64,000 nt of DNA from Eledone cirrhosa (Eukaryota). A program made the translations under genes and the position numbers. Below, one piece after another: positions 31,910 to 40,214 of the stretch. The notes under the pieces are model-generated. The model was not told the origin of the DNA, searched no databases, and was given only the letters and a program-made list of their open reading frames with translations. The stretch spans positions 126,542,001-126,606,000 of the forward strand of contig OZ024744.1 in assembly GCA_964016885.1 (NCBI GenBank), in the 5' to 3' direction. Positions within the stretch are counted from its first letter, which is position 1. Every line of letters starts with the position of its first letter.

Positions 31910-33514
31910 TTATGATTTCTCCTCTGTATGTATACGTTTGTGTCTAGTTAAGGCATTACTTACAGAGAATGATTTACCACAGATATCACAGTGATATGGC
32001 TTGTCTCCTGTATGGGTACGTTTGTGGCTAGTTAAGGTACCATTTCGAGAGAATGATTTACCACAGATATCACAGTGATATGGCTTGTCTCCTGTATGTG
32101 TACGTTTATGTGTAGTTAAGTTACTACTTAGAGAGAATGATTTACCACAGATATCACAGTGATATGGCTTGTCTCCTGTATGTGTACGTTTATGTGTAGT
32201 TAAGTTACTACTTAGAGAGAATGATTTACCACAGATATCACAGTGATATGGCTTGTCTCCTGTATGGGTACGTTTGTGGCTAGTTATGGTACCACTTAGA
32301 GAGAATGATTTACCACAGATATCACAGTGATATGGCTTGTCTCCTGTATGTGTACGTTTATGCGTAGTTAAGTTACTACCTAGAGAGAATGATTTACCAC
32401 AGAAATCACAGTGATATGGCTTGTCTCCTGTATGGGTACGTTTGTGGCTAGTTAAGGTACCACTTAGAGAGAATGATTTACCACAGATACCACAGTGATA
32501 TGGCTTGTCTCCTGTATGTGTACGTTTATGTCTAGTTAAGTTACAACTTAGTGAGAATGATTTACCAAAGATATCACAGTAATATGGCTTGTCTCCTGTA
32601 TGTGTACGTTTATGTGTAGTTAGGCTACTACTTTGAGAGAATGATTTACCACAGATATCACAGTGATATGGTTTGTCTCCTGTATGTATACGTTTATGTG
32701 CAGTTAAGTTACTACTTTGAGAGAATGATATACCACAGATATCACAGTGATATGGCTTGTCTCCTGTATGTATACGTTTATGATTAAATAAGGATCTACT
32801 TTCAGAGAATGATTTACCACAGATATCACAGTGATATGGCTTGTCTCCTGTATGGGTCCGTTTGTGGCTAGTTACAGCCCTACTTCCAGAGAATGATTTA
32901 CCACAGATATCACAGTTATATGGCTTGTCTCCTGTATGTATAAGTTTATGCTTAAATAAGGATCTACTTTCAGAGAATGATTTACCAAAGATATCACAGT
33001 GATATGGCTTGTCTCCTGTATGTGTACGTTTATGTGCAGTTAAGTTACTACTTAGAGAGAATGATTTACCACAGATATCACAGTGATATGGCTTGTCTCC
33101 TGTATGGGTACGTATATGTGTAGTTAGGTTACTACTTTGAGAGAATGATTTACCACAGATATCACAGTGATATGGCTTGTCTCCTGTATGGGTACGTTTG
33201 TGGCTAGTTAAGGTACCATTTAGAGAGAATGATTTACCACAGTTATCACAGTGATATGGCTTGGCTCCTGTATGTGTACGTTTATGTGCAGTTAAGTTAC
33301 TACTTAGAGAGAATGATTTACCACAGATATCACAGTGATATAGCTTCTCTCCTGTATGGGTACATTTGTGGTTAGTTAAGTGACTACTTCGAGAGAATGA
33401 TTTACCACAGATATCACAGTGATATGGCTTGTCTCCCGTATGTGTACGTTTATGTGTAGTTAGGCTACTACTTTGAGAGAATGATTTACCACAGATATCA
33501 CAGTGATATGGCAT
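31910..33514 (-). CDS. Tandem C2H2 zinc-finger protein, copy 2 (19 repeats, two with C->F at the second Cys)
   Basis: 534-aa ORF with the same repeat and the same linker-derived ATG as copy 1. Confidence 0.9.
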   Translation of the reverse strand: MPYHCDICGKSFSQSSSLTTHKRTHTGDKPYHCDICGKSFSRSSHLTNHKCTHTGEKLYHCDICGKSFSLSSNLTAHKRTHTGAKPYHCDNCGKSFSLNGTLTSHKRTHTGDKPYHCDICGKSFSQSSNLTTHIRTHTGDKPYHCDICGKSFSLSSNLTAHKRTHTGDKPYHCDIFGKSFSESRSLFKHKLIHTGDKPYNCDICGKSFSGSRAVTSHKRTHTGDKPYHCDICGKSFSESRSLFNHKRIHTGDKPYHCDICGISFSQSSNLTAHKRIHTGDKPYHCDICGKSFSQSSSLTTHKRTHTGDKPYYCDIFGKSFSLSCNLTRHKRTHTGDKPYHCGICGKSFSLSGTLTSHKRTHTGDKPYHCDFCGKSFSLGSNLTTHKRTHTGDKPYHCDICGKSFSLSGTITSHKRTHTGDKPYHCDICGKSFSLSSNLTTHKRTHTGDKPYHCDICGKSFSLSSNLTTHKRTHTGDKPYHCDICGKSFSRNGTLTSHKRTHTGDKPYHCDICGKSFSVSNALTRHKRIHTEEKS

Positions 33515-35449
33515 GCCTCCTGTATGGGTAGGTTTGTGATCAGTTAAGCGACTGCTGAGAGAGAATGATTTACCACAGATATCACAGTGATATGGCTTAT
33601 GTCCTGTATGGGTACGTATGTGAGAAGTGAAGTCACTACTTCGAGAGAATTATTTACCAAGGATATCACAATATGGCTTATCTCCTGTATGTATAACTTT
33701 GTGAGTAGTTAAGGTACTAAGTTTATTAAATGATTTACCAGATATCACAGTGATATGGCTTCTCTTCTCTAACCTTCGTCATCTCACTAGGAATACTAAA
33801 CACTTTAGATTGTGTTACACATTTAATCTTGTTTGTCAAATATTTTCCATAATTATTCCTTCTTCAACAGAATATACAGATGTTTTCCTTGTAATTTTTT
33901 TATATTATAATTCTTATAAAATATTTCTTCTTCTATATTTCCCTCAACTATATTTCAGATAACATCTGAAGATAATACAAACTTCTTTTTCATCCACGTT
34001 TAGTTAAAATACAAAATCATCTTATAGTGAAGAAAATAAACTCAGTTTTGAGGAAATATTTCACAGTAATACGATGAGAGATTTATATAAACAGTGTTAT
34101 ATAAGTTCTGCTTAGAATGTTTTAGTCTTAAAATGATGATAAATAGAGGTGATGTATCCAAGATTGAAAATAATAATTTATCCCAATGTCATCTGATATT
34201 CTGAAATAAGAAAGAAACAGTATGAGATAATACAGAATACTTTAGAAGCAGAGATAGATTTAACAGTGGGAATTTTATATTTCTATATTGGTAAATTGTA
34301 GACTACCTTGAGTAGAAGATTATGGAAGTTAAAGGACCCCATAGCCAGTGACAAAATTAAAAGCCTATTACTTGATGCCTTTGACAATAAGGAAGATCAA
34401 TTAGAGAATGCAATATAGAGGAAGAGTGGCAATCCTTGAAAGTGAACCTGCTGAAAGCAACAGTCAGTAGGAACCTCTAACAAAATACACCCCCGTCCCA
34501 CTACCCCCACCCCATCCACACCACCCCCTTAAATGTGAAGTTATGTTGGAACCACAACATCCAGTCCGAAACAAATGAGGTCGTGTAGGTGTCACGACAA
34601 AAAAAAAAACACACAGTCCACGCTGTAATGTGGCCATGTAGGTAACACGGTAAAAACCTCCCAGTCCACACTGTAAATGTGGTTGGTGTTAGGAAGGGCA
34701 TCCAGCCGTAGAAAACCCATCAGACAGTCCTATGTGAGCAAGACAACCATTCTTGCCTCAAGTGGGAAAACTCCCGTCCAAACCCATGCTAGCGTGGAAG
34801 ATGGACGTTAAACGATGATGATGATGATGTATATATATATACACTGTGCACAGTATATATAATACCCTATATATGTTGTCCAAGAGAAAGGCTATGGCCG
34901 ATACAGCTTGGCACTTGTGACATCACAACATATATATACACTGTGTACAATATATATTATACACTATATATGTTGTCCAAGGGAAAGGCAATGGCTGACA
35001 CAGCTTGACACCAGTGACATCACAACATATATATAACTTATATCCCAGACTTCCATAGATTATTTCTATTCTACAGCTATCTCTCTTCCCCAGTTTCAAA
35101 ATGTTCTGTTTACATTATTATTATTATCATTCACTTGTTCCACAACGTATATACTTAGACCTTGTTTTTGATATAAACATGGTTGGACATTGTCTCTTTC
35201 TCTACAAACTCATCCTTAACCCCTCCCTTTTCTCTCACTCATTCATTTCGGTGTTTTCAAAGCTAGGTGACCATCTTCGAAGTTCTTGCATACTTGCCTT
35301 GTCTAATATGTCTACTTACATCTGCTTATTTCCCCCGAATCTCCTGTGATGATATATGTCATGATGGCTACCGATCTCACAATTTCCCACTCACCACCAT
35401 AGGCTATTTGACCAATCAAACCTCAGCAACATGTCCTTACCCATTACCA

Positions 35450-37731: not shown

Positions 37732-38785
37732 ATATACATATATATACACTGTGTACAGTATATATACACTATATATATTATACAGTATATATCCACTATA
37801 TATATTATACAGTATATATCCACTATATATATTATACAGTATATATATACACTATATATATGTCCAAGAGAAAGACAATGGCCTGTACAGCTTGGCACGA
37901 GTGACATCACAACATATATATATACTCTATATATACACTATGTATATATTATACATACACTGTGTACAGTATATATACACTATATATATTATACAGTATA
38001 TATACACTATATGTCCAAGAGAAAGGTTATGGCCAATACAGCTTGGTACCAGTGACATCACAACTCATTTCTACATTTCAAGGAAACAACACATCACCCG
38101 GCCTGAGAAACGAACTCACAACCTTTTAATTGTAAGCCCAATGCTCTAACCACTAAGCCATGATACGTTCCAGAACCAACCGTGATATAGAGAGACCATA
38201 AAGACAACCGTTGTTTCCATAGTTTAAGCCTTAAAATACCTCATACATGCTTTAAGTACATATAAACTCATTAAAACACACTTTTGTATTTAAACACCAA
38301 AAACAGCCAGTAACGATCGTATAGAAACTACCACCAACCGTCATACCACTAGTTACCAATGAGGACTATTGCCAGCCACGGTAGCCACTTGGTAATACAC
38401 TGCACACCTCCCGTCAATCTATGAAGGGTTTGTAGTAGATTAGAGCAAAACACAATCAGTAAAACAATAATGGAATGAAAAATATAAACATTTTTTCATA
38501 GTTAAAGCCTTAAGATGTCCCTTCCTTACGATATACACTTTAATAACATTGAAACTTATGTAATAAGTGTAAAATGTAAACACTTTTTATTCAGAGGTAC
38601 CGCGATAAGAAACTAGATATGTTCTAACGAATAATCCGCGATGTGGCGAGGATTACCGCAATAGGAAATTATATACGTTCCAAAGAAATATCCGCGATGT
38701 AACGGGACCGCGATATAGCGGGGCATTACTGTATATATACACACACAACATACATCTATCTATATACACTCATAACATATATTTC

Positions 38786-39406
38786 GGCACTGTCATGGTA
38801 TTAGCTGTCAGAAGTGAAAGTAGAAGAAGGTGACGTCATTCGTCAACCTTCTCAATCCTTTATTTCCGTATCACTATTCCCTTTATTTATGTTTAGGATT
38901 TTCTAAGAGATACGTTTACGATGAGATACACTTATTAAAAAATAATATGGGGACCAAATAACCCCGTAATTTTCGAGAGAAACGATAATATACAATCTTA
39001 TTTAACATGTGGATTAAAAACTACACTAGCTGTTACAATTGTAATTAACGTGTAAGAACTTAAATGAAAATATAGGTGGCCCTTAAAAGGGCCGGTGTTG
39101 AACTTTAATTTGTTTTCTAATTTGATAACCATGACTTGTTTCAACACCGGCCCTTTTAAGAGCCACCTATATTTTCATTTAAGTTCTTACACGTTAATTA
39201 CAATTGTAACAGCTAGTGTAGTTTTTAATGCACATGTTAAATAAGATTGTATATTATCGTTTCTCTCGAAAATTACGGGGTTATTTGGTCCTCATAAATA
39301 AAATAATAAACGTAAATAAACGGAATAGTGATATGGAAATAAAGGATTGAGAAGGTTGACGACTGACGTCACCTTCTTTCTGACAGCTAATACCACGACA
39401 GTGCCC
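38786..39406. mobile_element. Palindromic (foldback/MULE-like) element with ~270-320 bp inverted arms and a 37-nt spacer
   Basis: GGCACTGTCATGGTATTAGCTGTCAGAA ... TTCTGACAGCTAATACCACGACAGTGCC; flanks tatatttcg/tttatttcg (~9-bp TSD); empty site at ~53910-53925. Confidence 0.85.
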
Positions 39407-40214
39407 TTTATTTCGATATCTTACATTAAAATGTTGACTGAGGGTGTGACAACTGTTTCTTGTTTGAGGTTGTTCCAGTTGTTGAAATATAGACGGAGGT
39501 ATATTAAATAATAAAGACAGTCATGATAACAATATATTTTATATCACATGTAACAGTGGAATCTGATGATTGAAAAATATCACATCAACATTTCAGTTTG
39601 GAAGTGTTTTTTCTATATATAAAAGTGGAGGAAGAAATATATTTTTCTAATGTTGTTATATATATTTTCACTTGTATATAATTACTGGGTCGTTGTAGGG
39701 TTCACATAATTATATTATTTACACACATTAATATAGACATTAAGTAAATCTTTGTCAACTTACCTCCTTCACATATAATCAATGTGTTGTGTTGTTAGTT
39801 GTTACTAAACAACCAAAGAAATAATCTCTTTGTTATCAAATTAGAAGTTTCAATGTTATCAGCTTTATTTCACGACATTAACGTTGGTGTATCTTCTTCA
39901 TCTTTAGTCATAAATTGATATCTTGTCAGAATGAAGTAGTGAGGCTGACTTTATGTCTTTAGCTACAGATTTGATAGGAAATATATATATATATTAGGTT
40001 GATATGTGGTCTAAAATATATATATTGTCTATAAATGACTGATAGCAGATGTTCTGGTGAAATAGTAGTTTTACTACTACAGATTGTAATGGAACTCTTA
40101 GTAGACACAATTGTAAAGTAAGAATAGATATGACAGTGTAAGACTGATGTCGGGGAATAAAAATTGTGTATATATATATATATTATATTAATTAATATAT
40201 ATATATTGTGTGTG

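Follow-up and report, generated by a model that had tools for sequence, protein, structure and literature searches.

The 3′ ends of replication-dependent histone mRNAs involve SLBP and the U7 snRNP, and in Pack-MULE-type capture fragments of host genes are carried between transposon termini. Two papers present replication-dependent histone mRNAs as the sole clients of the histone stem-loop pathway (PMC11997800, PMC3169594). The closest published case to the one described here is Tm1-HH of Meloidogyne (Gross and Williamson 2011, PMC3169594), presented in the sections devoted to it as a non-autonomous Mutator/Foldback element with 9-bp duplications and one hairpin between its repeats, a histone hairpin accompanied by 300-400 nt of 3′ sequence. 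Its authors suggest a Pack-MULE-like capture and leave the function open; those sections name no donor gene and describe the hairpin for the non-autonomous class. The element analysed here is likewise a non-autonomous element with terminal inverted repeats that holds a histone hairpin and 3′ sequence. What differs is its superfamily, which is Merlin, the mirroring of the hairpin in both arms, the tracing of a donor gene, and the placement of the hairpin also behind the stop codon of a transposase. Merlin elements, related to IS1016/IS1595, are defined in the text on that superfamily by GG termini and 8-9-bp duplications (PMC8101967), and its main text contains “histone” 0 times and “stem-loop” 0 times. 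In titles and abstracts we found no report of Merlin or Helitron elements with such a hairpin; the main text on O. vulgaris repeats (PMC13282606) contains “histone” 0 times, and its supplements or Repbase could hold the family. We think it probable that the hairpins of the copy described below are passengers, predicted to mask each other, within arms that are largely the captured 3′ end of a host H4 gene in a Merlin element.

The window is the whole 64-kb stretch of Eledone cirrhosa DNA that was analysed, and the element in it is an imperfect palindrome (Table 1) with arms at 38786-39102 and 39140-39405. The arms differ at 10 of 266 paired columns, and the left is longer than the right by 51 nt, spread over three indels. 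A sequence-only reading had called the palindrome near-perfect over about 620 bp; the length stands, and near-perfection is confined to the inner 157 nt of the arms, where there are 3 mismatches only. That reading also held that the element was absent from paralogous introns, and paralogous sites at about 1285, 19282 and 53918 in the window are indeed empty, within what are putative introns. A filled site differs from an empty one by 629 extra bases, which is 620 + 9, and a duplication of about 9 bp, as had been claimed, fits the flanks of the window copy (7/9 positions agree). Contigs from public runs (four sets of unknown kind) skip 629 nt at the window site, a gap that the empty paralogous sites account for. 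One contig of high depth (~4000) joins the repeat at 38377-38510 to H4-derived arm sequence (39065) in opposite orientation. Both arms carry TGACGTCA, as had been noticed earlier. We considered this motif as a special signal and rejected it, as it is likely a terminal-repeat motif; ACGTCA is also present near the ends in two of the three other Merlin clades checked. Matches of the window copy to miRNA families were far below the cut-off and reflect the palindrome.

Table 1. Coordinates of the element and of the neighbouring zinc-finger features within the window.
Feature	Position	Strand	Remarks
Non-autonomous Merlin-type palindromic element, GG..CC ends	38786..39405		620 bp
Target duplication, left copy	38777..38785	+	7/9 match; best read as 8 bp with one extra base on right
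Target duplication, right copy	39406..39414	+	Pairs with left copy, 7/9 match
Left terminal and subterminal repeat, TGACGTCA at 38831-38838	38786..38896	+	No block match to H4 flank
Captured H4 3′ end, left arm	38897..39100	-	Score 265.6 against locus L175; boundaries approximate
Stem-loop, left arm; 16-nt hairpin 39078-39093	39054..39098	-	Rfam RF00032, 40.5 bits
Spacer, 37 nt	39103..39139		Matches repeats directly upstream of hairpin in 3′ UTR of transposase-coding relatives
Stem-loop, right arm; 16-nt hairpin 39149-39164	39144..39188	+	32.1 bits; one stem mismatch
Captured H4 3′ end, right arm	39142..39295	+	Sequence match to H4 3′ end
Right terminal and subterminal repeat, TGACGTCA at 39364-39371	39296..39405	-	Arm alignment
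C2H2 zinc-finger array of probable host gene (ZNF exon)	31910..33649	-	Frame
Likely splice donor (GT at 39763)	39758..39763	-	4/4 paralogs; ~360 nt upstream of element on ZNF strand

The stem-loop that had been claimed for each arm is present, perfect on the minus strand in the left arm and with one mismatch in the right. Scored with the Rfam Histone3 model (RF00032, gathering score 34 bits), the left hairpin lies above the cut-off (E 6e-10) and the right one below it. The mismatch is a variant among copies: among 30 close copies, the right-arm hairpin is perfect in 23, has the window variant in 4 and another variant in 3. The 16-nt consensus of the hairpin has 1096 exact matches in the genome and a reversed control has 0, so the hairpin is not a chance match. 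Extended by 12 nt of H4 flank, it still has 556 exact matches, few of them host genes. The element resembles Pack-MULEs in this, as a host piece has been amplified between termini, and differs from them in that the piece is an RNA-processing signal, now part of inverted arms. By an approximate count made by eye, 66 of the 75 scored Histone3 matches in the genome carry the element's hairpin or overlap its copies, a warning that Rfam Histone3 matches in Eledone cirrhosa are mostly transposons.

The 29 distinct host histone ends that we compared (L171-L182, L186, L208-L211) have their hairpin 24-40 nt past the stop codon in 28 cases. No purine-rich downstream element is evident in any of them; its absence from the window copy, which had been entered as a caveat, is therefore no real caveat. 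Two other motifs recur, although their counts are optimistic, as both were picked by eye from these same 29 ends: a WWGT box at +12 to +24, present in 24 ends where shuffled sequences gave 5.8 on average and 13 at most, and a GAT-D-TGY box at +29 to +56, present in 22 (shuffles 5.1 on average, 14 at most). In window-type arms the WWGT box is found in 57/60 and the GAT-D-TGY box in 0/60, while the 3′ hairpin copies of transposase loci have the first in 24/27 and the second in 26/27. A genome search for U7 snRNA (RF00066) gave one match, at 29.7 bits, under the cut-off of 34. Compared with a histone mRNA 3′ end, the window copy has the host H4 hairpin bar one loop base, which is within the consensus, and retains the ACC and the WWGT box. 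It differs in having no histone frame, in the deletion of the second host box and in the predicted masking of its hairpin.

By its termini and its transposase-bearing relatives, the window copy, itself non-coding, belongs to the Merlin DNA transposons as a non-autonomous member. The terminal inverted repeats of the family begin with GG, and an 8-bp duplication (7 or 8 of 8 matching) flanks 9 of the 14 two-ended copies measured, with none in 4; the window copy, with its 7/9 flank match, fits 9 nt better than 8, so the 9-bp length claimed earlier applies to this site and is not the family norm. L032 has the same termini as the window copy and a 202-nt transposase remnant 90% identical to the coding region of L112, which encodes an intronless 302-aa frame with the DDE_Tnp_IS1595 domain (PF12762, 68.8 bits). 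In L134, sister termini and an 8-bp duplication enclose transposase sequence, and the nearest proteins to the family transposase are Octopus Merlin-like proteins (73-79%). With these loci, the longer copies with an internal transposase that the sequence-only reading predicted do exist. Its derivation of the element from a transposon with terminal inverted repeats is also borne out, except that the supposedly long repeats are mostly captured H4 flank. Set against the part of the superfamily description that bears on it (PMC8101967), the family shares the terminal GG, 8-bp duplications and inverted repeats within 24-462 bp, and its coding relatives share the transposase type. Two features are unlike Merlin, namely the H4 3′ flank that makes up most of the window-copy arms and the position of the coding copies at the ends of repeats of more than 10 kb, in which the left end was not found.

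The element DNA search of the genome yielded 78 matches from the 40 scored of 988 candidates, the PF12762 search 150 scored matches of 448 candidates, and a terminus pattern search 85 ends, dispersed insertions among them. The 30 best loci diverge from the window copy by 0.6-7.8%; 24 have the window's flanks, 4 have a second flank pair and 2 are chimeric. Because flanks are shared, these near-identical copies represent about two insertions multiplied with their surroundings, and by the same flanks most of them descend from two insertions, the window's own having spread inside zinc-finger clusters. Chimeric flanks and a flipped spacer (L004, L030, L050; L023, L025, L028, L029) point to recombination, which is suggested both between arms and between the two insertion sites, and L012 has an identical change in both arms. 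L038, a 175-bp member that has no hairpin, is flanked by a perfect 8-bp duplication; movement therefore does not require the hairpin in cis.

Among the larger members, L112 and L117 have intact or near-intact frames and a left end that was not located, while L134 and L200 are bounded and have broken frames. No left Merlin end was present within ~13 kb upstream in any of 9 long transposase copies that were extended, and the true autonomous parent is therefore not delimited. The coding copies (L193-L207 with L233-L241) terminate a repeat of more than 10 kb with ~900-bp tandem units, which also holds low-complexity frames and nested retroelements, and, ~380 nt ahead of the start codon, they contain the window-type terminus as an internal palindrome. 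L197, L200, L128 and L130/L136 are palindromic elements with two inverted transposase copies, and an 8-bp duplication encloses L200. The family interior also harbours nested Merlin elements of other clades (L032:2951-3918; L045:1882-2562), of which the one in L032 has its own 8-bp duplication. A transposase fragment in the middle of L032 was considered as the family transposase and rejected, as it belongs to this nested, different Merlin; a search with it gave 30 loci, with the hairpin in L032 alone. A search of a virus collection with a single transposase protein gave no match, and an alignment query gave 12 loci at 21-29% identity. Family copies adjoin host histone genes in three of the four histone clusters read (L209, L210, L211), which suggests that the family prefers histone loci.

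The transposase-coding relatives carry the hairpin in a different setting. Among 30 loci picked by transposase similarity, 27 have a sense-strand hairpin past the stop codon, at a distance of 115-137 nt in 21 of the 26 measured; an AATAAA lies between stop and hairpin in 23/26, and an antisense mirror hairpin is found on the 5′ side in 25/30. This transposase-linked hairpin scores 34.0 bits, right at the Rfam cut-off, and in the L112 transposase RNA its predicted pair probability is 0.975, as compared with 0.971 for host H4. All six transposase copies checked keep the hairpin with ~50 nt more and both host boxes, and they hold 0 of four distal H4 segments. With a loose version of the second-box motif, the 3′ and 5′ sides did not separate (26/27 versus 23/25). 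In a Merlin tree, for which 74 of 90 loci passed a length filter and L128 was scored “no” though hairpin-bearing, the hairpin occurs in 25 of the 28 loci of one clade and in 0 of 45 in the other clades here. One metagenome relative (L315, one usable contig) has no hairpin in ~190 nt after the stop.

Hairpins of this kind are also found in Helitrons. We read 20 of the 1096 consensus matches, taken from among the first 100 and chosen for other loops or tandem pairs; 14 are in Helitron-type 3′ regions (8 in family A, 2 in B, 3 in C and 1 in a non-coding copy), 5 are unassigned singles and 1 is Merlin. The hairpin is on the sense strand wherever a helicase frame is present. It is common, with short flanking motifs, to the three families, whose helicase sequences are ~58-65% identical in the piece compared. 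All the Helitron hairpins scored below the Rfam cut-off, and family B has no downstream boxes. Among 44 Helitron loci picked by PF21530, the hairpin was found in 0; 39 of these belong to a single distant family, and 4 of the 5 others, all from family C, are clearly without that 3′ part. Family A has two hairpins in tandem, 76 nt apart, and in families A and C the hairpin follows an apparent 3′ UTR intron. The hairpin-bearing loci (L213-L221, L223, L224, L228, L229, L231) are a minority among Helitrons here, and neither host boxes nor shared flanks accompany the single hairpin matches L222, L225, L226, L227 and L230.

The strongest rival to the passenger reading holds that the cassette is retained as an SLBP/U7-made end of the transposase mRNA, timing enzyme supply to S phase or oocytes, that Helitrons did likewise independently, and that the window copy is a dead by-product. 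We regard this as a serious possibility that nevertheless falls short of being probable. The hairpin lies in sense after the stop in 27/30 loci, mostly at 115-137 nt (21/26), but host genes place theirs at 24-40 nt (28/29), and in 23/26 loci a competing AATAAA stands upstream of it. It is predicted to fold (0.975) and scores 34.0 bits behind an intronless 302-aa frame; its 5′ flank, however, is T-rich, the A/C-rich flank having been replaced, and read-through from the 5′ arm is predicted to mask it. The trimming of 6/6 copies to the hairpin and both boxes, with no distal H4 segments, would be expected of a cassette in use, yet an antisense 5′ mirror is present in 25/30 and the loose second-box motif does not separate the two sides. 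All the Merlin cases are in one clade (25/28 versus 0/45, and none in L315) and hence represent one event. Independent support would come from the Helitron families, which keep a sense hairpin downstream of the helicase frame at ~58-65% protein identity, although their hairpins fall below the Rfam cut-off (a cut-off missed by the host H3 end of L175 as well), family B has no downstream boxes and 0/44 PF21530-picked loci have the hairpin. The family copies beside host histone genes in 3/4 clusters also agree with this rival. Use of the hairpin by the parent transposase mRNA is a possibility that we put forward tentatively. The same caution applies to the broader proposal that a Merlin clade and a Helitron clade, though of unrelated classes, each independently acquired a histone stem-loop cassette downstream of the transposase gene and process their messages through SLBP/U7, with enzymes made in replication or stored in eggs and the window element a mirrored relic that exposes the donor H4 gene. 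Conversely, a pure passenger reading of the whole family leaves two things unexplained, the trimming of transposase copies to the hairpin and 50 nt, and the Helitron hairpins.

By the position of the likely splice donor, the window copy of the element appears to lie in a ZNF intron. The reading frame of the ZNF copy downstream of it is broken by a frameshift and an in-frame stop close to where the finger array begins (33640-33790, minus strand), and this ZNF copy may be a pseudogene or have a later start. For RNA of the ZNF strand cut off at any of five points, the first 5 nt past the hairpin and the last at the end of the element, the predicted pair probability of the left hairpin is 0.000; it is 0.975 without the opposite arm, in an RNA starting in the spacer. 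The predicted fold of the whole element is -423 kcal/mol. Because transcription along the ZNF strand reaches the complementary right arm before the left, the left hairpin is predicted to be sequestered, and cleavage by SLBP/U7 at the window copy is unlikely under this model, which is one of equilibrium, so that a brief local hairpin might form during transcription. The retention of distal H4 flank alongside the hairpin in small copies also counts for the passenger reading, as do the lack of the GAT-D-TGY box in all 60 window-type arms and the movement of the hairpin-free L038; against it count the left-arm score above the Rfam cut-off and the retained WWGT box, and against masking the hairpin that a spacer-started transcript would expose (0.975).

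The sequence-only reading had proposed that the perfect left hairpin might terminate the ZNF transcript, and a rival built on this would have it cut the ZNF pre-mRNA within the intron, lowering gene output. Such a cut could draw on the 40.5 bits, the native H4 5′ flank and WWGT box, and the position of the hairpin, which lies beyond a conserved donor in the same orientation as the ZNF frame. We consider it quite improbable, as the complementary arm comes earlier in the transcript and pairing falls to 0.000, the second box is deleted, the intron is deduced from sequence and the ZNF frame has a stop and a frameshift near its start.

The donor of the arms can be traced to a single gene. The genome has 21 H4 matches, 12 of them full-length. 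Of 13 H4 loci compared, L175 gave the left arm its best score, 265.6 with the 3′ region, and the other 12 gave no more than 121.8. The aligned stretch begins 7 nt ahead of the hairpin, ends ~320 nt past it and is interrupted by deletions, so that the left arm contains 7 nt of 3′ UTR, the stem-loop and a downstream flank with internal deletions; the H4-derived share is ~200 nt of the left arm and ~150 nt of the right. The first 45 nt after the hairpin are common to other H4 paralogs, and beyond ~45 nt the flank matches L175 alone among 13 H4 loci. The spacer has another homology, as element positions 316-356 match L069, L075 and L081. Subfamilies of the element retain differing pieces of the L175 flank, and L048, which has window-type termini, retains H4 codons up to and including the stop, followed by the complete 3′ UTR. 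Judged by these matches, the arms consist largely of sequence from the 3′ end of one host H4 gene, with internal deletions, taken in a single capture from host to transposon, much as the earlier prediction of a captured histone gene had it. The reverse direction, in which recombination at the hairpin put transposon sequence in place of the L175 flank and the arms were never captured, would account for a flank that is unique to L175 past ~45 nt, and family copies do occur beside histone clusters. It is nonetheless very unlikely, given the H4 codons within the termini of L048, the different sub-pieces kept by different subfamilies, the long stretches of L175 that are absent from every element and the absence of any terminal inverted repeat, terminus or transposase within 10 kb around the L175 H4 gene. 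Least probable of all is a Mutator/Foldback element like nematode Tm1-HH, which the foldback shape, the 629-nt skip and the 7/9 flank match at the window site would allow, and which the 8-bp duplications of 9/14 copies, with 9 bp not the family norm, and the Merlin (IS1595-type) transposase sequence within the same termini argue against.

Returning to capture by a Merlin family as the best explanation, its history may be reconstructed as follows. The sequence shows that the family acquired the end of the L175 H4 gene, from its last codons through 3′ UTR and stem-loop into several hundred nucleotides of flank. The captured piece was then presumably joined to the subterminal region and mirrored into both arms. 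The transposase-coding members, as observed, retain only the hairpin and ~50 nt, in sense behind the stop and as a mirror on the 5′ side. Merlin transposase probably moved the small palindromic derivatives in trans, giving 8-bp duplications, and two insertions, as their shared flanks indicate, multiplied with the surrounding DNA, the window's within zinc-finger gene repeats. RNA through the window copy would be one long duplex, and SLBP/U7 cleavage there is predicted to be unlikely.

A single H4 gene can be named as the source of the captured signal, which now occurs at hundreds of sites and lies where it could end a transposase mRNA. If the signal is used, a cut-and-paste element could time its enzyme to S phase, and the family allows direct testing of SLBP/U7 use by non-histone messages. 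If the signal is unused, the family would still be a clear case of signal capture.
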